DNA from: an uncultured Acidobacteriota bacterium
Lineage (GTDB): Bacteria > Acidobacteriota > Terriglobia > UBA7540
Assembly (NCBI GenBank): GCA_963804995.1
Contig: CAWDSK010000001.1
Coordinates: forward strand, 448,001-512,000
DNA: 64,000 bases
Direction of reading: 5' to 3'
The notes below the pieces were generated by a model. That model made no database searches. It was not told the origin of the DNA and saw only the letters and a program-made list of their open reading frames with translations. The position numbers and the translations under genes were made by a program. Shown here one piece after another: positions 23,353 to 32,940 of this stretch. Within the stretch, counting starts at the first letter, position 1, and every line of letters begins with the position of its first letter.

Positions 23353-25440
23353 ATGCCGAGAATCAGAGGTCAGCGGCTCATGAAGTACGTGGACCAAGGT
23401 GTATGCTCGACCGCCACCGTCCTATACGATACCATTCAGTTCTTCAATAAATACCGCCCCGGTCCGACCTTCATTCCCAGGTGGTCTGACAAGCCACTGC
23501 TGAAATCCTGGCAGAAGACCAAGCCGCAGCTGGGCTGGCCCCGCCAGACCGACTCGCTGTGCCCGGAGTGTGTGAAGGAGGCGCGCGAGCGGATTCTGAA
23601 CGGAGACCAGAACTGGCAAACTCTGCTCTCTGAAAAGGTGGGCGAGATCAAGGCCAACATTGTTGAGCGTGACGGCCAGATCTGGATGGTAAAGGATTGC
23701 CCCATCCACGGCCACTTCGAAGACATGATGGCCGTCGATTCCCACTTCCTCGAATGGATTGAGAAGAACTTTCCCGGCCGCGACATTCGCGCCCACAACG
23801 ATGAGGGCCTGCACAATCACGGCTTCAGCTCGATCAAGCACGGCCGCGGCTCCGTGCTGACCGTGGACCTCACCAACCGCTGCAACATGATGTGCGACCC
23901 CTGCTTTATGGACGCCAACCAGGTGGGCTTTGTCCACGAATTGACCTGGGAAGACGTGAAGGAAATTCTCGACAACGCCATCACCATCAAGCCGCGGCGC
24001 CAGATGTCGGTGCAGTTCTCCGGTGGCGAGCCCACCATGTCGCCGTACTTCATCGACGCCATCCGCTACGCGCGCAAGCTGGGTTACAACAGCGTGCAGG
24101 CTGCGACCAATGGCATCGAGTTTGCCAAGAGCAAGGAATTCTGCCGACGCGCTTTTGAAGCGGGCCTGCGTTATGCCTACCTGCAATTTGACGGGATCGG
24201 CAACGACGCCAACAACCACCGCCAGGTGGGCAACCTGTTCGACGTCAAGTTGCGCGCCATTGAGAACATGCACGAGGCCGGCATTGAGATCATCCTGGTA
24301 GTAACCATTGTCAACAATGTAAACAATGACCAGGTCGGTCCCATCGTCAACTTCGCCCGCAACAACCCCAAGAAAGTTGCCTTTGTAGCCTTCCAACCGG
24401 TTTCGTTCACCGGCCGGGATGAGGACATCACTCCGCAGCGCCGGCTGCGTCAGCGCTATACCCTGGCGCATCTTGCCAGCGACGTGAAGAAGCAGACCGG
24501 CATCACTGAGCCCACGCGCGATTGGTTCCCCATTTCGCTGATGGGCGCTTTCGCGGATTTTGCCGACCTGGTGCACGGGCCGGAGGCGCAGTGGGGCCAG
24601 GTAAGCTGCGGCTGCCATCCGAACTGCGGCGTGGGCACCGCCCTGATGATCAACAAGGAAACCAAGGAATGGGCGCCCGTCCCGCAATTTCTTGACATCC
24701 CCCAGCTCGTGAAGGATATGCAGGGCATCACGGACGCGGCGCGGGGCAAGACGTTTTCAAACCTCATGATGGGTCTGGCCCTGCTCAAGAACTACAAGCC
24801 GATGCGGGCTCCCAAGAGCCTGGCGCTGATCGACCTCCTGAAGAAATTCGACAAATCCTTCGCGCTCACCGGCGAGGCGCGCGCCCGCAAGAAGTATGGC
24901 GCCTCGGACCCCAACCGCACGCTGGAAGACGCCATGAAGCGCCGTTCCGATCCCTGGAACTTCCTCTTCATCGCCGGCATGTGGTTCCAGGACCTTTTCA
25001 ACTATGACTTCCGCCGCACCGAGATGTGCATCATTCCTTACGCCACGCAGCAGGGTGAAATCTCCTTCTGCGCTTACAACACCGGCATCGGCTGGCGGAA
25101 GATTCTGGAAAATATGTACAAGAACGCGTCGGTCGCCGAGTGGTACAAGACCCACGGCAAGCACGAAATCTACGCGAAAGGCAAGGAAGTGAAGCTGGAT
25201 ACGACCCAGCATTCCCTTTACGTGAATGCCGAGGACGCGGCGCGCGTTCGCAGCCTTGACCACGATGTTCCTCATACCGCGGCGGAAGAAGATAAAGCCC
25301 GCCGCAAGGCCGCGTGGGAAGCCCAACAGGCCGCGCAAGCCCGGCAGGTCTATGAGGAAATGGTTCTCAAGAAGCCCAAAGCGGAGCTGGTGCAGATCGG
25401 CGCCACAGCCAAACCCGAGGAAGAAAAAATTACTGTCTAG
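23353..25440 (+). CDS. Radical SAM protein, tetraether synthase (Tes/GDGT-MAS)-like
   Basis: SLCPEC and KDCPIHG N-terminal motifs, DLTNRCNMMCDPC, QFSGGEPT, YLQFDG, FQPVSFTGR, CGCHPNCG, FQDLFNYDFRR..CIIPY..FCAYN. Confidence 0.85.
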   Translation: MPRIRGQRLMKYVDQGVCSTATVLYDTIQFFNKYRPGPTFIPRWSDKPLLKSWQKTKPQLGWPRQTDSLCPECVKEARERILNGDQNWQTLLSEKVGEIKANIVERDGQIWMVKDCPIHGHFEDMMAVDSHFLEWIEKNFPGRDIRAHNDEGLHNHGFSSIKHGRGSVLTVDLTNRCNMMCDPCFMDANQVGFVHELTWEDVKEILDNAITIKPRRQMSVQFSGGEPTMSPYFIDAIRYARKLGYNSVQAATNGIEFAKSKEFCRRAFEAGLRYAYLQFDGIGNDANNHRQVGNLFDVKLRAIENMHEAGIEIILVVTIVNNVNNDQVGPIVNFARNNPKKVAFVAFQPVSFTGRDEDITPQRRLRQRYTLAHLASDVKKQTGITEPTRDWFPISLMGAFADFADLVHGPEAQWGQVSCGCHPNCGVGTALMINKETKEWAPVPQFLDIPQLVKDMQGITDAARGKTFSNLMMGLALLKNYKPMRAPKSLALIDLLKKFDKSFALTGEARARKKYGASDPNRTLEDAMKRRSDPWNFLFIAGMWFQDLFNYDFRRTEMCIIPYATQQGEISFCAYNTGIGWRKILENMYKNASVAEWYKTHGKHEIYAKGKEVKLDTTQHSLYVNAEDAARVRSLDHDVPHTAAEEDKARRKAAWEAQQAAQARQVYEEMVLKKPKAELVQIGATAKPEEEKITV

Positions 25441-26632: not shown

Positions 26633-26980
26633 TTAATCGGAATCATCCACCAGAGGTACCAGCGGTTTCATGCGAAGCTCAGCGCAGATTTCTCGCAGGA
26701 GTTGCTGGCTGGCTGGTTCGGTATCGTGGAATGACAACCCTGCCTGGCCTTGGGGGCTATTCCAAGCGACCACGGCAGGAGTCCGGAATTCCCGGCCTTT
26801 CCATTCCATAGTGAGTTCACACGCTTGGTGAACATGCAGCGAAGCGGCGTAATCCAGCAAGCAGCCGAGCACGCACAGATCTACCACGACCACCGCAAGG
26901 GTAGTGTTTTCCGCAGGCACGCCGAGGCTGGCCTTCAGATGAGCCGAGTAACGAGGAACTTGCCGTCGCTCCTTAATCAT
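26633..26980 (-). CDS. PilZ domain protein
   Basis: ERRQVPR (RxxxR) and DLCVLG (DxSxxG-like) motifs. Confidence 0.8.
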   Translation of the reverse strand: MIKERRQVPRYSAHLKASLGVPAENTTLAVVVVDLCVLGCLLDYAASLHVHQACELTMEWKGREFRTPAVVAWNSPQGQAGLSFHDTEPASQQLLREICAELRMKPLVPLVDDSD

Positions 26981-27244
26981 GCCCGGAGTGTAATTCCTCC
27001 TCTTTGAAATCGCAATGGCGTTGGGAAACTCCAGGCCATCACCCCCCACGAATTTTCCAAGACCACCCCTACCTGTGGTGCCTCCCCGTTATTTGCACAA
27101 CAAGTTGAAAAATTCTCCCATTCGAAGATAATCGTTTGAGGAGCGTCCACATGTTTGAAGTGCCGCCCAAAGTTGCGGGTTAACGCTGGCAAGCCGGCCC
27201 AATGTTAAGGGAATAGAACGGGTATTCCAAAAGGAAGATCAGAG

Positions 27245-28596
27245 ATGACGGCTACACCTCGAATTCGATTTGCTGAACCACCACCGGCGAAGTGCGTGCT
27301 CGGCCTGGGCGTGATTGGCCTGGGCACGGTCGGAACCGGGACCTTGAAGGTTTTGCCTCGAGCATCGCCGCGAAATCCAGCGACGGGTGGGATGCGAACT
27401 GCAACTCAAGGTCATTTGCTCGCGCACGGTGCACAAGCGCGATCTTTCCTGGCTGGGCACATCCGTGAAGCTGACCTCCGACTGGAAGCAGGTGGTCCGC
27501 GACCCGGAAGTCGATATCGTGGTCGAGTTGGTCGGGGTTCTCTCGACGGCCCGTGCCATCGCCTTTGCCGTGCTCAACGCGGGCAAGCACTTGATCACCG
27601 CCAACAAGCAACTGGTAGCCGAACACGGGGTGGAGCTGGTGGAGCGCAGCCGCGCCCATCACGTCGGACTGGGCATCGAGGCTTGTGTGGCCGGTGGCAC
27701 ACCCGTGCTGCACGCTGTCCGCGAGGGACTGGCGGGCGAAAACTTTAATGCCGTGTACGGCATCCTGAACGGCACCACCAACTACATCTTGACGGAGATG
27801 GAGCGCCGGGGTTGTTCGTTCGCGGAAGCGCTTGCCGAGGCTCAGGAGAAAGGCTACGCCGAACCTGATCCCACCTTCGATGTGGAAGGCTTTGATGCGC
27901 GTTACAAGATTGCCATCCTGGCGATGATGTGCTTTGGCCAGGCCGTGCGTGTGCGCGACATTCCCGTGGAAGGCATCACGCGGATCGAGCAGGTGGATTT
28001 TACCTACGCGCGGCGGCTGGATCATACCTTGCGTCTGGTGGCTGGGGCGCGGCGCCGCACGAGCGACCGCCTGGAAATCTTTGTTCGCCCCATGATCATC
28101 CCTGCGGCTTCGCGCCTGGCCAGCGTGCGAGGGGCAACCAACAGCGTGTTGCTGGTGGGCAACAAGGGCGGCAACACCAGCATCACTGGGAGGGGCGCGG
28201 GCGGTGAGCCCACGGGCGTCGCCGTGCTCTCCGACGTGGTTCAGGTGGCGCGCTCCATCGCAGCAGGTGGCTCAGGCTCGAACGCCGTTCGGGTACGAGA
28301 GTTGGCACCCTTCCAGGATTGCGCCGCCGGATGAAAACGTGGTCGCCACCTACCTTCGACTGGTGGTCCGCGACCGGCCCGGCATCCTGGGGCGCGTGTG
28401 CACCATCCTGGGAAAGCACCGCATCAATATCGACTCGGTTATGCAGGAGCCGGGCTGCACCAAGGGCCACTTGCCGTTCGTCATGACGCTTGAGGCCACT
28501 CAGGAGAAGCACGTGGCGCGCGCCGTCCGGGAGATTTCCCGCCTGTCCTTCCTGGCACAACCTCCGTTCCTCCTCCCCTTTGCCGAGTTGCCGTGA
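27245..28596 (+). CDS. hom: Homoserine dehydrogenase with C-terminal ACT domain; two +1 frameshifts (~27355, ~28280)
   Basis: GLGTVGTG, ITANK, GILNGTTNYIL, GYAEPDPTFDVEG, GRGAG, DRPGILG across three consecutive frames. Confidence 0.88.
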
Positions 28597-28701
28597 CTAT
28601 ACAGGGCGCCATAAATTGTAGCGGCGGTCTATGACCGCCGGTCGGCGCTCATAGAGCGCCGCTACAGCCGAATGCGCAAACACTTATGGCGCTGTGTATA
28701 G
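28597..28701. repeat. REP doublet enclosed in an outer inverted repeat (MITE-like)
   Basis: CTATACAGGGCGCCATAA..TTATGGCGCTGTGTATAG enclosing GTAGCGGCGGTCTATGACCGCC..GAGCGCCGCTAC. Confidence 0.7.
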
Positions 28702-28816
28702 CTTCGCACCAGAACATCGCTTCCGCCACCGCGCTTGACTTCGCATCCGAACGCCTCTAGAGTTGCTCCGAATTTGTCACACCCTGCAATTTCGGTGTCA
28801 GGAGGTAAGTGCGCCT

Positions 28817-29116
28817 ATGATTCCAGTCTTTCACGCCGTACTTGCTGCCATTTTGGGTTCGGGAGGGAGCGCCGCGCCGGCGCATCAATCACGAATCCCC
28901 GTCATAACCTACGGTGCCAATGCCCTTGTGCAGGCGAGCGGCGCCGTGAAGGAATCATCCAACAAGAACCTTAAGGTCACCCACAAGGAAGATTTGAAGA
29001 CGAACAGCAAGGTAATCAAAAACACTGACAAGACCATCAAGAACGAGGGCAAGTTTAATAAAACAGTGAAGGAAGACAAGGTCACTCCTGCGTATAAGGA
29101 AAGCACCATTAAGTAA
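28817..29116 (+). CDS. Lysine-periodic 99-aa peptide, candidate precursor/substrate
   Basis: AGGAGG RBS; 44-aa Lys-free hydrophobic leader, then 55-aa region with 15 Lys. Confidence 0.75.
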   Translation: MIPVFHAVLAAILGSGGSAAPAHQSRIPVITYGANALVQASGAVKESSNKNLKVTHKEDLKTNSKVIKNTDKTIKNEGKFNKTVKEDKVTPAYKESTIK

Positions 29117-29122
29117 GACCTC

Positions 29123-29154
29123 GGCGGCCATTCGGGGTCTCCCGGATGGCCGCC
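29123..29154 (+). other. Intercistronic GC-rich stem-loop without a U-tract
   Basis: GGCGGCCATTCGGG-gtct-CCCGGATGGCCGCC. Confidence 0.6.
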
Positions 29155-29167
29155 CCCTCTTCCTGAG

Positions 29168-30268
29168 ATGATCATGGATGTACCTTCCTCACTTCCCCCT
29201 CTTTACGCACATTGGATGAACGACCTCCTGCCCGGGCCTCTGCCCGCGGAAACCAAAGCTACCTGTCAGACTTGCCCCATGCTGGGACGCGAGGAGCGTC
29301 CGGGACCGGGTGTGGTCTTCTTCCATAACAAGATCAAGTGCTGTGCTTACCTCCCGCGGCTTTACAACTTTCTGGTGGGCCGCATTCTGGCGGATGAGGA
29401 TCCCGCTGCCGCGGCGGGCCGCGCCACAGTGGAAGCGCGCCTTAAGGCCGGTGTCGCCGTGACGCCGCTCGGACTTGAGCAGACTCGCACCTTCGTGCTT
29501 CTCTATGAGAACAGCTCCGCCGCGTTCGGCCGCAACCGGGCGTTGAAGTGCCCGCATTACCTGGAGGAGACGGGCGGCTGCGGTGTCTGGCGGCACCGCG
29601 AATCCACCTGCGCCACCTGGTTCTGCAAGCATGAGCGCGGTGCGGCCAGCCAGGCTCTCTGGCGAGAGTTCGTGCACCGGCTGCTCGGTAACGTGGAGCA
29701 CGAGCTCGCCCGCTGGTGCCTGCTCAAGCTGGACGTGGAGGATGAGGTTCTGCGTTCGCTTCTCGCGCCCTCCCTGGGAAGCGGCGGGGGGCCGATTCAC
29801 GGCGAGGAACTCAACGGCAAGATTGATTCCGCTGAGTATCAAAAGAACTGGGGTAAGTGGCGGGGGCGTGAAGGTGAGTTCTACCGCGCCTGTGGCCGGT
29901 TGGTTTCCGCTCTCGAGTGGCAGGAAGTTCTGGACATTTGCGGGCCGGAGACGAAGCTTCTTGCCGCTCTAACTCGCCAGGCATACCAACGATTCATTTC
30001 CGAAGAAAAACCACCGCGCTTGCAGGCGGGTTCGCTACAACTGGTTCGCATCGGGCATGAGACCACGCGGCTCTCCACCTACAGCGAGTTCGATCCGCTC
30101 AACATTCCCAATCCCGTGCTGAAAGTGCTGCATTACTTTGATGGGCGCCCCACGGCTGATGTCGTCGCAGAAATTACCACCAAAGAAAACATCGGCCTGG
30201 AACCCGCCCTGATCCGCAAGCTGTCGGACTTTCGTATCCTTGTTCCCCCGCCGGATGACGCGAAGTGA
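29168..30268 (+). CDS. Cysteine-cluster (CxxCxxCC/YkgJ/FliB-like) protein with PqqD/RRE-like C-terminal domain
   Basis: CQTC..KCCAYLP..CPHY..CGVWRHRESTCATWFC; C-term VLHYFDGRPTADVVAEI..LIRKLSDFRILV. Confidence 0.7.
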   Translation: MIMDVPSSLPPLYAHWMNDLLPGPLPAETKATCQTCPMLGREERPGPGVVFFHNKIKCCAYLPRLYNFLVGRILADEDPAAAAGRATVEARLKAGVAVTPLGLEQTRTFVLLYENSSAAFGRNRALKCPHYLEETGGCGVWRHRESTCATWFCKHERGAASQALWREFVHRLLGNVEHELARWCLLKLDVEDEVLRSLLAPSLGSGGGPIHGEELNGKIDSAEYQKNWGKWRGREGEFYRACGRLVSALEWQEVLDICGPETKLLAALTRQAYQRFISEEKPPRLQAGSLQLVRIGHETTRLSTYSEFDPLNIPNPVLKVLHYFDGRPTADVVAEITTKENIGLEPALIRKLSDFRILVPPPDDAK

Positions 30269-30269
30269 A

Positions 30270-30450
30270 TCAGAGCATATGACGCATGTGCAGGAAGAGG
30301 GCGACGCCACCCACGATAAGCCCCACACCGATGATGACCATCAGGACCGCCTTTAGGCGCAGGCTACTCTCGATCTGTTTTTCGGTCTTGGTGGTGATCA
30401 GGTAGGTCTTCTCATTCTCGCCCTTCTTGATGAGGTTGTATTCCTCGCGC
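30270..30450 (-). pseudogene. C-terminal fragment of a membrane protein (GIDE-like tail)
   Basis: IKKGENEKTYLITTKTEKQIESSLRLKAVLM plus TM helix; no start codon or N-terminus. Confidence 0.4.
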
Positions 30451-30459
30451 CCCTGTGGC

Positions 30460-32940
30460 CTACTTCCTTCCCAGCAAGCGAATGCGTCCGGTGATGGCGC
30501 GGCCCTGGACACCCGTGAAGGTGAGGAAATTTGGCGAGTCGACGTTGGAATTCACGAAGGAAGCATTGGCGCGGTTGGTGATGTCGTCCATGCCACCACG
30601 CAGCGCCCACTGAAGTCCCAAAATGGTGAAGCGCCGTTCCAGGCTAAGGTCGAGCGAGAAATAAGGGGGGAAGCGCCGCGAGCCCGGAGCCCCCACCACC
30701 TGTTGGGAATCATTCTGTAAAGTGAAGGGAAAACCGTCGTGCCAGTCAAGTGTATAAGCCAGGTCGACTTTGTGGGTAAGTGGGAGCCACGCCCAGGAAA
30801 GGAAGCGATCAGGCGTGTCCCAGGCCAGCGGCCCGCCGGCCTGGGGGCTGAAGAGCACGGTGTCGATGTTGTAGCCGAAGACAGCATCGGAATGCGCGCG
30901 CGAGCGCGTGTAGGAGGCGAACACCACGTGATTCGGCTTAAAGACGTGCCGGAGGGTCAGTTCCGCGGCGTCGTAACGATCGTGGCGGTCGTTGGTCAGG
31001 ATGAAATCTCCCGTGAACGGCCCCGTGGGTGAAGTGGAAGCGCCGGGGTTGATAAAGGTCCAGATATCGCGTCCGCGCTTTTCCAGAAATTGCAGGTGCA
31101 AATAGGTGGACTGCGGCAGCTTCTGGTCGATCGCCACGCTCCAGTTCGTCACGTGCGGAAATCGCAGCGCGCGCTCGTTGATCGTAAAGGTGCTGACCAC
31201 CGGCGGCTGGATCAGGTTAAGACCCGTCGCGTCATAAAAGGAATCCGTGCGCGTGCCGGTAAGTGAACGCGTGAGGATGTCAAGATTACTCGGGTCGCGA
31301 TAGATACCGACTCCCCAGGAGATTTTAGTGTTGCCATTGCGCTTCACCAGGTACGTGGACGCGAGGCGCGGCGAAGGGGCCAAGCCATGGATCACATCGT
31401 CCCAATCCAGGCGCAGGCCGGGTTCCAGCAGCCAGCGGCCGGTCACCGACCAGCGGTCCTGCGCGTAGGCGCTCGCTTCCACCAGGTCGCGGGTAAAAGG
31501 CGCGGCGTTGGTGAAATCGACGCGGCGTGAAAGCGTGCCGTCGTTGCGCTCCACCAGGTAAGGTCGCCGGTTGAATTCCTGGTGGTCATTGACCCGGTCG
31601 GTATCAAGGCCCACCTTGACCTCGTGCTTGCCAGCCCATTTGAAGGGGGGCAGAAACAGGTTGCCGATCTCCTCGATACGCTCGGCGTAGCCGTGGTTAG
31701 CCTCGTAGTAGTTGCCGCTGGTTCCGTTCGGAGTGATGAGGTAGGTCTGAGGACCCAAGGGGGAGGAATCGTTGTTGAAGCGGCTGGCCGCAAAACCCAG
31801 TTCCCCGAGCGCCCCGTTGTGAAAAAGGTGCTGGTCCCTGACTGTAAACATGAAACTGTCCGTGGTCACGTTCTGGGTGGTGGAGACGGGGTCGAGCGGG
31901 TCCAAGCCGGTATGGGGGGAGCGAAAGAAGTTCGCGAGAAAACTGGTCGTCAAGTTGTTGCGCGGCTCGAGGTTAATCTGCACTTTGGAAAGGTTGCTGA
32001 AACGCCAGATGCTGTTGCGGTCACCGCCCGCGGGCAGTTCTTTGAATATGTGCAAATCGGATTCACCCTCCAGCGCGTCCATGAACCATGCCTTGCCCTT
32101 GCTCAGTGGACCGGTAATGAGCCCCCGGGGGGTCCAGGAATCCAGGTTGATGCCTTTGCGGTTTTGTAAATTCGGGATGAAATCCGTGGCCGTCACGCGC
32201 CAGTGGTCGTCGCCCATACCAGTGCGCAGACTGATGATTCCGCCCGACCCTTTGCCGAATTCCGTCGAATAGCGGCTGCTCGCTACCTCCACGGAGCGCA
32301 GAGCATCCACGCTGACGCGCATCAAGAACTGGCCGGTGGTGGGGTCGGAAACATTGAAGCCGTCGATCTGATCGTAGACTTGGCGCGTGCTTGCGCCGGC
32401 CACGTGGAGTTGCCCGAAGCCGTCTTGCAACACGCCGGGCAGGAGCGGCAGCGCATAGCGAATGTCGCGCGCTACGGTGAAAGGCAGGTCGACAATCTCT
32501 TGGCTCGACAGCGTCTCACTCGCCTGAGTCTTCTCCGGGTCGATGGCGGGCGGTGAGTAAACCACGTTCACTTGCTCAGAGAACTCCCTGACGTGGTTCA
32601 ACGTAACTTCCAGGTTAGCCACTTCGCCCACCTGCACTTCTTCCAAGCTGACCGCGAAGAAACCTTGCTTCTCAACCTTGGCCGAGTACTCACCCGGCAG
32701 CAGATTGGCGAACAGCGCGCGGCCCGCGTAATCTGTTTCGCCGCGCACCACCTCCAGTCCTTGCTTGGGCGTGAGGGTGATGGCCGCCGCGCGCACCACG
32801 GTGCTGTTCTCGTCCAGAACCGTTACCTGTAACTGCACACGATCCTGTGCACTTTGGGGCGGTTCGACTGGTGGCGAAGTTCCCAGCGCGGCCGCCACGG
32901 ACAACACCCAGGCCAACAGCACCATAACCTTCGGTTTCAC
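30460..32940 (-). CDS. TonB-dependent receptor with N-terminal carboxypeptidase-regulatory-like domain
   Basis: Signal peptide, GETDYAGRALFANLLPGEY, LPGV..IDGFNVSDP..YSTEFG plug, beta-barrel; start uncertain (32925 or 32940). Confidence 0.88.
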   Translation of the reverse strand: MKPKVMVLLAWVLSVAAALGTSPPVEPPQSAQDRVQLQVTVLDENSTVVRAAAITLTPKQGLEVVRGETDYAGRALFANLLPGEYSAKVEKQGFFAVSLEEVQVGEVANLEVTLNHVREFSEQVNVVYSPPAIDPEKTQASETLSSQEIVDLPFTVARDIRYALPLLPGVLQDGFGQLHVAGASTRQVYDQIDGFNVSDPTTGQFLMRVSVDALRSVEVASSRYSTEFGKGSGGIISLRTGMGDDHWRVTATDFIPNLQNRKGINLDSWTPRGLITGPLSKGKAWFMDALEGESDLHIFKELPAGGDRNSIWRFSNLSKVQINLEPRNNLTTSFLANFFRSPHTGLDPLDPVSTTQNVTTDSFMFTVRDQHLFHNGALGELGFAASRFNNDSSPLGPQTYLITPNGTSGNYYEANHGYAERIEEIGNLFLPPFKWAGKHEVKVGLDTDRVNDHQEFNRRPYLVERNDGTLSRRVDFTNAAPFTRDLVEASAYAQDRWSVTGRWLLEPGLRLDWDDVIHGLAPSPRLASTYLVKRNGNTKISWGVGIYRDPSNLDILTRSLTGTRTDSFYDATGLNLIQPPVVSTFTINERALRFPHVTNWSVAIDQKLPQSTYLHLQFLEKRGRDIWTFINPGASTSPTGPFTGDFILTNDRHDRYDAAELTLRHVFKPNHVVFASYTRSRAHSDAVFGYNIDTVLFSPQAGGPLAWDTPDRFLSWAWLPLTHKVDLAYTLDWHDGFPFTLQNDSQQVVGAPGSRRFPPYFSLDLSLERRFTILGLQWALRGGMDDITNRANASFVNSNVDSPNFLTFTGVQGRAITGRIRLLGRK

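Follow-up and report, generated by a model that had tools for sequence, protein, structure and literature searches.

A two-gene locus of an uncultured Acidobacteriota bacterium pairs a leader-bearing peptide with a lysine-rich core and a cysteine-cluster protein carrying an RRE-like domain: a candidate RiPP maturase family

Organization of the locus

The window analysed here is a stretch of 64 000 nucleotides from an uncultured Acidobacteriota bacterium (positions 448 001 to 512 000 of contig CAWDSK010000001.1, assembly GCA_963804995.1); all positions given below are those of the window. Between positions 28817 and 30268 it carries two genes in the same orientation. The first encodes a peptide of 99 residues, and the second a protein of 366 residues with eight conserved cysteines and a C-terminal domain resembling the recognition element (RRE) of enzymes that mature peptides of ribosomal synthesis that carry post-translational modifications (RiPPs). 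We consider it likely that the two products form a leader-guided pair in which the protein modifies the peptide. The larger protein represents a credible, apparently undescribed family of RiPP maturases, and the pathway would be an RRE-guided one with a catalytic domain that is apparently new to RiPPs.

The features of the locus are listed in table 1. The co-oriented arrangement of the two open reading frames (ORFs) and the strong ribosome-binding site of the first had been pointed out in a preliminary description of this DNA, and both are found on reading the ORFs and the sequence. The single promoter candidate compares with 0.5 sites expected in shuffled sequence; a contig from an RNA library starts downstream of it, at 28784. 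The database copy of the second gene begins at the second ATG (29174) and thus encodes 364 residues.

Table 1. Features of the peptide–enzyme locus.
Feature	Position	Strand	Basis or remark
Sigma-70-like promoter candidate, TTGACT-17-TAGAGT	28735..28763	+	9/12 consensus positions; consensus match only; 54 nt 5' of ATG
Shine–Dalgarno AGGAGG of the precursor gene	28800..28805	+	Sequence read directly; 11 nt before ATG 28817
Precursor peptide gene, 99 aa + stop	28817..29116	+	ORF, relatives, codon pattern, RNA contig
Precursor residues 1–26, hydrophobic signal-peptide-like N-terminus (MIPVFHAVLAAILGSGGSAAPAHQSR)	28817..28894	+	
Precursor residues 27–43, putative recognition sequence IPVITYGANALVQ, then SGA leader end	28895..28945	+	
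Precursor residues 44–99, Lys-rich core, (V/T)(I/V)K(N/E) units, end ...STIK	28946..29113	+	
Intercistronic hairpin, 14-bp stem, without U-tract	29123..29154	+	Folding z -4.1
Enzyme gene, 366 aa	29168..30268	+	Alternative start 29174
Enzyme residues 33–153, eight-Cys putative metal-binding region	29264..29626	+	Invariance, weak PF03692 match, co-fold contacts
Enzyme residues 281–366, RRE-like winged-helix domain	30008..30265	+	AlphaFold2 model, structure matches

The stem-loop between the two genes, which had been described as lacking a U-tract, is real. It has a loop of 4 nt, the 76-nt stretch around it folds with -36.3 kcal/mol, only one of 200 shuffles folds as well, and no U-tract terminator site is called there. 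Strong stem-loops (z <= -2) follow the last precursor gene in nine of 38 related peptide–enzyme intergenic regions, including that of the closest DNA relative, locus L082. Hairpins after precursor genes are a common device of bacteriocin and RiPP operons.

The precursor peptide

The precursor contains 15 lysines, at residues 45, 50, 53, 57, 61, 65, 68, 72, 75, 79, 82, 85, 88, 94 and 99, and none in residues 1–44. The spacings (5, 3, 4, 4, 4, 3, 4, 3, 4, 3, 3, 3, 6 and 5) and the lysine-free leader of 44 residues agree exactly with the preliminary description. None of 5000 shuffles of the 55-residue tail kept all spacings within 3–6, so the even spacing is not due to chance. The further proposal that the lysines line up on one helical face was not backed: the Fourier peak between periods 3.3 and 4.0 was equalled by 580 of 5000 shuffles, which is not significant, and this argument was dropped. 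A short unit, (V/T)(I/V)K(N/E/D), recurs in the core, and relatives carry repeats of the KxxIK or SAIKDG type.

There are 16 relatives of the precursor in the database, of 87–111 residues, with a near-invariant leader and variable Lys-rich tails in which the lysines are mostly 3–4 apart. When the 17 related sequences are aligned, the leader segment L9–A20 is nearly invariant; P28, G33, A34 and G42 are invariant, and V29, Y32, A36, L37 and Q39 are kept in at least 90% of the sequences. The SGA at the end of the window's leader aligns with the ..IVQPNGG of the relatives. The leader thus ends in ..VQASGA where the relatives end in ..GG, which fits a leader ending of the GG/GA/GS type. The peptide matches no Pfam or NCBIfam model.

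At locus L082 a homologue of the peptide gene occupies the equivalent place, beside an enzyme of 74% identity. Of the 43 leader codons compared, nine are identical, 13 differ by synonymous changes only and 21 change the residue; differences are distributed over the three codon positions as 15/9/25. The 60 nt upstream of the peptide gene are only 23% identical. A 240-nt metatranscriptome contig spans 28784–29023 with one mismatch and fits a short, abundant precursor transcript, although it is one contig from one library and carry-over of DNA is possible. The only other read contig on this stretch is a DNA contig (29141–29483); the remainder is uncovered and uninformative either way. The shares involved are small (<=0.17), and no habitat is named. 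On the evidence of its relatives, its coding-type codon-position bias and the RNA contig, the small ORF is a real gene.

The family of cysteine-cluster proteins

The family of the 366-residue protein is large. An exhaustive profile search gives 1936, 1652 and 1119 clusters (50% identity) at E <= 1e-3, 1e-10 and 1e-30, respectively, and most of the 150 matches listed cover nearly the entire profile. A word-index search found 528 relatives among 8000 candidates scored. Among the 120 relatives listed, lengths range from 324 to 409 residues and the source names are 'hypothetical' or, in four cases, 'Fe-S-cluster containining protein'. No Pfam or NCBIfam model exists for the family, as judged from the window protein and 25 members. 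In a collection of species-representative genomes, 244 stretches encode a relative; the 79 loci that were kept come, by record title, from metagenome-assembled genomes (MAGs) of Acidobacteriota, Gemmatimonadota, Chloroflexota, Methylomirabilota, Myxococcota and Alphaproteobacteria, among others.

The conservation is of the kind seen in enzymes. In an alignment of 125 sequences, extending to about 30% identity, 15 residues are invariant: C33, C36, C58, C59, C138, C148 and C153, together with P63, G71, P100, R144, T150, W151, W165 and W228. C128 is kept in at least 90% of the members. The pattern C33xxC36, C58C59, C128, C138, C148, C153 noted earlier is therefore present, with seven of its eight cysteines invariant. 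Residues 1–280 (the N-domain) fold confidently with this alignment, with a predicted local distance difference test (pLDDT) value of 88 and a predicted template modelling score of 0.89. Radical S-adenosylmethionine (SAM) enzymes are not indicated, since neither the window protein nor the 25 members match PF04055 and the alignment contains no CX3CX2C. A search for longer fused forms of the N-domain found none, which is weak evidence. In the ESM Atlas the scores are 0.89, 0.85 and 0.84, all below 0.9; one cluster carries PF03692 on 15% of its members and is a lead only.

No paper on the family was found in the literature covered, to which subscription journals do not belong, and among the papers listed for YkgJ, COG0727, UPF0153 or PF03692 none is about RiPPs by title. 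The accessible part of a 2025 survey of RREs reports many RRE fusions without a Pfam match and does not mention PF03692 (PMC12710340).

Remote kinship to the YkgJ and FliB proteins

The preliminary description had placed the protein near the CxxCxxCC (YkgJ, UPF0153, PF03692) family and the flagellin lysine methylase FliB. Weak matches to PF03692 occur in 14 of the 25 members (best E 0.0082), and the window enzyme scores 15–17 bits over residues 114–150. A six-frame scan of its own 7.55-Mb genome with PF03692 gives two places at E <= 1, one of them a true member and the other this gene (16.9 bits). In a profile comparison by hhalign with 12 true PF03692 proteins of related genomes, the probability is 56.6% (P 1.1e-4, 41 columns, residues 111–152). 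The cysteines C128, C138 and C148 of the window, in the context C128-P-H-Y..G-x-C138-G-V-W..R..C148, are paired there with the half of the domain that reads 'C.fL..g.C.IY..RP..Cr'. These profile comparisons suggest that the N-domain is a relative, but only a remote one, of the YkgJ/CxxCxxCC cysteine-cluster domain.

The differences limit this kinship and count against a firmer assignment. None of the 25 members reaches the PF03692 gathering cut-off of 23 bits; all matches being sub-threshold, membership of a catalytic family is not established. The first motif is not a contiguous CxxCxxCC: between C33-x2-C36 and C58-C59 lies an insert that varies and has about 21 residues. The window enzyme also adds a helical domain and the RRE, both of which the true members of related genomes (136–426 residues) lack. 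With the FliB model NF038110, no match appears among the 25 members (E <= 10) or in the organism's own genome (E <= 1).

FliB, the lysine N-methylase of Salmonella flagellin, is nevertheless instructive. According to the FliB study (PMC8598068), it has a [4Fe-4S] cluster bound by CX4CX3CC, eight conserved cysteines, SAM dependence and no recognisable fold. As far as that source goes, no other enzyme with a cysteine-cluster domain of this related kind has been characterised, and FliB acts on lysines. The window protein resembles it in size, in its eight conserved cysteines, in an N-terminal motif of the C..C..CC type and in that its fold is not recognisable. The lysines that FliB modifies are many and belong to a single substrate, and the putative substrate here is Lys-rich. 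It differs in the motif itself (CxxC-x21-CC against CX4CX3CC) and in that the putative substrate is a small, leader-bearing peptide with predicted recognition by an RRE, where FliB uses flagellin. With the motif split and the FliB model without a match, we take FliB as an example of how the enzyme may work and not as its family.

The C-terminal domain and predicted docking of the leader

In an AlphaFold2 model built from 25 sequences, residues 281–366 have pLDDT values mostly of 88–96. This domain was compared by VIA-align, which is independent of Foldseek, with 48,161 PDB representatives. The top match is TigE (Z 7.5, 81 residues aligned). It is accompanied by the RREs of MccB (Z 7.2, 79 aligned), MibB (7.0), TbtB (6.7), MadB (6.3) and PbtF (6.3), and further by ThcOx (5.5), NisB (5.5), TbiB1 (5.4), lasso B1 (5.1), McbB (5.0), LynD (4.7), PqqD (4.7) and CteB (4.3). 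Judged by their entry titles, RiPP proteins that carry an RRE fill at least 13 of the top 20 rows (Z 4.3–7.2), and the RRE alignments extend over 70–100 residues with root-mean-square deviations of 2.8–4.1. Foldseek gives TigE a probability of 0.99 and TbiB1 one of 0.77, without an E-value at 1e-3. The Z-scores, none above 7.5, are middling on the tool's own scale, so the argument for an RRE rests on the uniformity of the match list. RREs are divergent in sequence; the window protein and the 25 members do not match PqqD (PF05402) at E <= 1. The resemblance to a PqqD-type winged helix proposed from the letters is thus borne out at the level of the fold.

The enzyme (25-row alignment) was co-folded with residues 1–60 of the peptide (15-row alignment), together with three controls. 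The scores are 0.77, 0.77 and 0.76 for the pair and 0.00 for all three controls; the mark of 0.77 is met by 116 of 157 solved complexes and by two of 215 mismatched pairs. At least 73% of the contacts agree between runs, and the pLDDT of the partner is at least 58. Docking of the leader on the C-terminal domain, as anticipated earlier, is accordingly predicted. Overall, peptide residues 27–47 and 51–52 contact enzyme residues 291–357. Leader residues 27–40 lie on 307–314 and 341–352, the canonical groove of an RRE. Peptide residues 41–52, which include the first lysine (K45), touch the N-domain at 30, 37–41, 43, 47–52, 61, 113, 117, 120 and 153–154, adjoining C36 and C153. Leader residues 1–26 are not among the interface residues named.

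Leader peptides beside homologues

Adjacency to leader peptides extends across the family. ORFs with a leader motif, found by regular expression, number 112 in the 79 genome loci against nine in the reversed-sequence control, and 51 in 80 metagenome loci against five. Using hidden Markov models (HMMs) of the leaders, with thresholds set above the best score in the reversed control, 48 of the 79 genome loci are positive, and in 47 the leader peptide lies no more than 1.5 kb from the enzyme gene. Positive loci number 30 among the 46 that are fully flanked and 27 among the 80 from metagenomes. In 28 of 72 loci the leader peptide is co-oriented and immediately upstream of the enzyme gene. These counts are lower bounds, as variant peptides of L016 and L025 were missed by the HMM.

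There are two types of leader. Type A, that of the window, begins with an N-terminus that is hydrophobic or twin-arginine; this is followed by the motif G-x-D-A-I-V-Q-P-N-G-G and by a basic Lys-rich core, which often ends in (T/A)PKK(D/E)G; the variant peptides just mentioned belong to it. Type B has a classic charged double-glycine leader (LSxxELxxVxGG) and a short core, often with several genes per locus. In a FastTree phylogeny of 134 enzymes, type A forms approximately one clade (21 type A and six unlabelled among 27 rows). The leader labels change 27 times on the tree against a mean of 57 after shuffling, and none of 200 shuffles is as low. The labels therefore cluster, which is no proof of co-evolution, since related enzymes share labels.

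The association has gaps. The expectation of short leader-type peptides beside homologues holds for the loci counted above and fails elsewhere: none was found in 16 of the 46 fully flanked loci or in 34 of 38 loci of distant homologues (below 43% identity), so the family may have other substrates. The distant homologues form basal clades (L124–L161) that keep the eight-cysteine core and the C-terminal domain, with a leader peptide in four of 38; these clades may act on other substrates, and the neighbourhoods of those without a peptide contain nothing recognisable at a glance.

The gaps would agree with an incidental adjacency, in which the small ORF is an unmodified secreted Lys-rich protein, a class II-like bacteriocin or no gene, and the Cys-rich protein acts on an unlinked substrate. 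Nor does the window hold another RiPP gene nearby, and an all-versus-all comparison of the flanking ORFs of the 79 loci and the window shows that none of the genes flanking the operon recurs beside homologues, the enzyme alone being shared. We find this explanation scarcely credible, given a roughly 12-fold excess of leader-motif ORFs over the reversed control, a leader type that follows the enzyme clade, docking controls at 0.00 and a peptide leader conserved with a coding signature. Relatives of peptide and enzyme also appear to share contigs, judged only by equal lengths of their longest contigs (7862 for P0004 and P0132, 38352 for P0009 and P0136).

Some cores of double-glycine peptides beside homologues copy short segments of known proteins. 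Examples are L063:4588-4965, whose core corresponds to positions 1–30 of Hcp (PF05638, E 1e-5, above cut-off), L054:6575-6760, which matches the segment of subtilases around the active-site His (PF00082, E 1.9e-4), and L038:620-985, which matches the end of the VgrG/gp5 OB domain (PF04717, E 0.0087). Other cores of this kind (also at L026, L027, L034, L039, L047, L053, L055 and L074) resemble, by eye, DUF1559/pilin N-termini (LLLPAVQKVRE), BNR repeats and RTX repeats. Such cores could be interference peptides.

In L030:4260-4994, L042 and L043, which belong to one enzyme clade, the upstream gene, which in L030 and L042 stops 7 nt short of the enzyme gene, encodes a protein of about 150–245 residues. 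This protein combines a segment resembling peptidoglycan-binding domains with a GIVQPG motif and an extended Gly-rich stretch. These proteins lie outside the leader-HMM count and are possibly protein-sized precursors.

Export of the peptide

Transport genes near the enzyme are summarized by leader type in table 2. A RiPP radical SAM C-methyltransferase (TIGR03975) lies near the enzyme in five loci. In the organism's own genome there is a single match to a C39 transporter, on another contig (C3).

Table 2. Transport genes near the enzyme gene, by leader type.
Leader type	Loci	With a nearby C39 peptidase-transporter	With a nearby HlyD adaptor
Type A	23	0	0
Type B	55	8	13
No leader type	81	3	4

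Seven type A loci (L006, L009, L011, L089, L090, L091 and L118) have twin-arginine motifs of the SRRxLLK type, (S/E/G)RRxLLK-like, directly before VQPNGG. By eye, the leaders of relatives read M-I-R + LFNAVLAAILG + SGGSAAPA, and the n-region of the window's peptide has no basic residue. Export by the general secretory (Sec) or twin-arginine translocation (Tat) route is suggested for type A by the twin-arginine motifs of the sister loci and the lack of a transporter at all 23 loci. In the window's clade, signal leaders of the Sec/Tat kind appear to take the place of a peptidase-transporter. The earlier idea that the hydrophobic N-terminus may act as an export signal fits these observations.

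In three of the sister loci (L006:4769-4933, L009:4769-4930 and L011:4771-4926) the precursors have 52–55 residues, with a twin-arginine signal (SRRGLLKGALIALGAS) and IVQPNGG followed by a tail that is little more than a run of 9–11 lysines. By record title, L006 and L011 come from Rhodospirillaceae MAGs and L009 from a Marinimicrobia MAG.

The signal-like leader also bears on a different reading of the 366-residue protein, as a non-enzymatic chaperone that binds the leader or signal peptide, or as a redox or metal sensor, which would keep the Lys-rich peptide in the cytoplasm, or shield the producer until the peptide is exported, in the manner of the Tat proofreading chaperones that bind signal peptides. 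The binding site predicted here coincides in part with the end of the signal-like leader, the twin-arginine signals of the sisters run straight into the recognition motif, and no catalytic fold is recognised. A domain of 280 residues with 15 invariant residues to about 30% identity, among them seven cysteines and R144, W151, W165 and W228, exceeds what a holding chaperone needs. Homologues also accompany double-glycine leaders and peptidase-transporters, where Sec/Tat proofreading is not required, and most of the RRE-fused structure matches are modifying enzymes. We therefore judge a chaperone or sensor very unlikely.

Core composition and the target residue

Lysine is the most widely present residue of the cores, occurring in 124 of 131 unique cores. 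Of the cores that are no longer than 12 residues, all 20 contain lysine, and no other residue is present in all of them; from composition alone, lysine in all 20 would be expected with a chance of about 0.3%. Lysine makes up 12.9% of the cores and cysteine 0.4%, which argues against thioether or other Cys-based classes. Cores ending in lysine number 34 of 132 against 18 expected, and none of 500 shuffles is as high. Certain motifs are enriched: K-x-[DE]-G in 13 cores against 4.2 expected, [DE]G[GIV] in 19 against 7.3, and a hydrophobic residue followed by lysine at the core C-terminus in 15 against 3.9. Such motifs (e.g. phi-K-x-[DE]-G) are confined to about 10% of the cores, and their counts are inflated by related peptides.

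That lysine is the modified residue is our best guess, offered tentatively from the composition and the analogy with FliB. Against it stand seven cores without lysine, all in multi-peptide loci, and the presence of lysine in long cores, which is expected from composition at 12.9%. The lysines could also simply give a cationic antimicrobial or adhesive peptide.

The same maturase and precursor might accordingly act on something other than lysine, the lysines providing charge only. The target would then be the side chains of Thr, Ser, Asn, Asp or Glu, the backbone, the C-terminal residue, or a cross-link between Lys and Asp/Glu. G, T, S, D and P are likewise abundant in the cores, no chemistry is assignable to the catalytic domain, and the lysine-less cores and the enriched K-x-[DE]-G, [DE]G[GIV] and C-terminal motifs point in the same direction. 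Set against this are the unique presence of lysine in all short cores and in nearly all cores overall, the action on lysines of the only characterised related cysteine-cluster enzyme, and the small, kin-inflated share of cores with the motifs. A non-lysine target thus seems doubtful to us.

Comparison with known systems

The locus resembles RRE-dependent maturases (PqqD/PqqE, NisB, MibB, TbtB, LynD, McbB, lasso B1 and MccB) in having a peptide-binding winged helix of about 85 residues fused to a catalytic domain, a leader predicted to lie along beta3 and alpha3, and adjoining genes for short precursors whose leaders are conserved and whose cores vary. It differs in that the RRE is C-terminal and lacks a Pfam PqqD match, and in that the catalytic domain fits no known class of RiPP enzyme and lacks a solved fold.

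A second likeness is to double-glycine systems of the C39, NHLP and Nif11 types: most homologue loci outside the window's clade carry LSxxELxxVxGG leaders, and the window's leader ends in the related motif ..VQASGA / ..VQPNGG. The window's clade differs in its hydrophobic or twin-arginine N-termini and in having no transporter nearby (0 of 23 loci).

Bufferins are signal-peptide-bearing RiPPs that are modified in the cytoplasm, with an RRE-containing partner, multinuclear iron (DUF692) enzymes and Cys-rich cores. Modification in the cytoplasm, a leader that doubles as a general-secretion signal and the RRE-containing partner would be common to both; here the enzyme is a cysteine-cluster protein and the cores are almost free of cysteine (0.4%).

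Proposed mechanism

We propose that the precursor consists of three parts: a signal-like segment (residues 1–26), a conserved recognition sequence (IPVITYGANALVQASGA, 27–43) that ends in a pair of small residues, and a variable, repeat-like, Lys-rich core (44–99). The RRE-like domain (281–366) would clamp the recognition sequence as an added beta-strand, and the clamped leader would feed the core into the N-domain (1–280), which is built round the eight conserved cysteines. These probably hold one or two Fe–S clusters, or an Fe–S cluster and Zn. The core would then be modified repeatedly, at its lysine side chains. Among chemistries, lysine modification is taken as the most likely because the N-domain is remotely related to YkgJ and FliB is the only characterised enzyme there. 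N-methylation is the leading guess within this scheme, and one that we think unlikely to be right as a specific assignment, based as it is on analogy. The modified peptide would leave by the general Sec route (Tat in the sister clades), with no dedicated peptidase-transporter. The hairpin probably stabilises the precursor transcript or partly terminates transcription, so that the peptide outnumbers the enzyme.

Several results weigh against this interpretation, in addition to the gaps in leader association, the sub-threshold family matches, the middling RRE scores and the single RNA contig described above. A search of 40 related genomes, of which 24 belong to the genus of this organism, did not find the enzyme gene, which is therefore accessory here. 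The N-domain has no relative in the PDB: the best VIA-align match has a Z of 5.2 and is generically helical, Foldseek gives E > 1 for the N-domain and nothing at E <= 1e-3 for it or the whole model, and a profile search of PDB sequences returns only levansucrase (E 1.9), which is noise. This absence of a structural match is not proof of a new fold. No site for SAM or another cofactor can be named in the N-domain model. The pass in the docking prediction may reflect likeness to known complexes rather than the affinity of this pair, because RRE–leader complexes have already been solved.

Weighing these points, we favour, with some reserve, a two-gene RiPP-type operon in which the two products belong together and the chemistry is left open. 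Computation shows the anatomy, the RRE-like fold, the adjacency to leader peptides across the family, the link of leader type to enzyme clade and the predicted docking, whereas the metals bound, the catalysis, the lysine target, the route of export and what the hairpin does are inferred. A bolder version would make the locus the representative of a new RiPP class. An RRE-fused Fe–S enzyme of the YkgJ/FliB type would modify the lysines of repeat-like cores iteratively, for example by the unusual methyl transfer with [4Fe-4S] and SAM that has been proposed for FliB. In the window's clade the leader would serve at the same time as a Sec/Tat signal, and the maturase would act as an export checkpoint that holds the signal until modification is complete. 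Elsewhere the family would tailor double-glycine peptides, including those with cores that copy Hcp, VgrG or subtilase, a hint of modified 'interference' peptides. This version is speculative, and we regard it as improbable in its entirety.

Neighbouring genes and repeat element

On its 5' side the operon is preceded by a homoserine dehydrogenase gene and then a palindromic repeat element. On its 3' side there follow, on the opposite strand, an ORF for an 80-residue membrane protein and a TonB-dependent receptor gene.

The 80-residue ORF (30270–30512, minus strand) converges on the stop codon of the enzyme gene. It has a predicted membrane segment and only weak Pfam matches (DUF6249, GIDE). 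The homoserine dehydrogenase is split across overlapping frames, with the catalytic and NAD-binding domains in 27387–28334 and the ACT domain in 28204–28596; the match to the NAD-binding domain starts only at position 21 of the profile. The split is due either to a frameshift or assembly indel, or to a pseudogene. Two genes upstream of the operon, a stand-alone PilZ-domain protein is encoded on the minus strand (26633–27049; E 1.4e-6, above cut-off).

The palindromic element (28618–28665) separates the homoserine dehydrogenase gene from the candidate promoter of the peptide gene. It is a perfect palindrome of 48 nt (GTAGCGGCG...CGCCGCTAC). Within the genome the pattern occurs 17 times and its 9-nt arm 458 times, and in a peat metagenome the element occurs on many contigs with differing flanks at a depth of about 549. 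It looks like an interspersed repeat of the repetitive extragenic palindromic (REP) type.

At 23353–25440 a radical SAM protein of 695 residues with an N-terminal zinc ribbon is encoded. It matches best the tetraether lipid synthase Tes, with 323.7 bits against a cut-off of 450 and thus below it; a Tes-like enzyme in a bacterial genome may be of interest for branched tetraether lipids. This gene, 3.4 kb upstream of the operon, was rejected as its partner: unrelated genes intervene and, the enzyme apart, the window and the other loci have no neighbour family in common.

Significance

If the proposed interpretation is true, more than 1000 sequence clusters without a Pfam or NCBIfam name would gain a testable function. 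The YkgJ/CxxCxxCC cysteine-cluster fold would acquire a second biochemical context beside FliB. As the substrate would be small, genetically defined and encoded next door, studies of mechanism would be much easier than with flagellin. The locus would also provide an example of an RRE that reads leaders of the signal-peptide type, and would bring a further RiPP class from soil phyla in which culturing is difficult.

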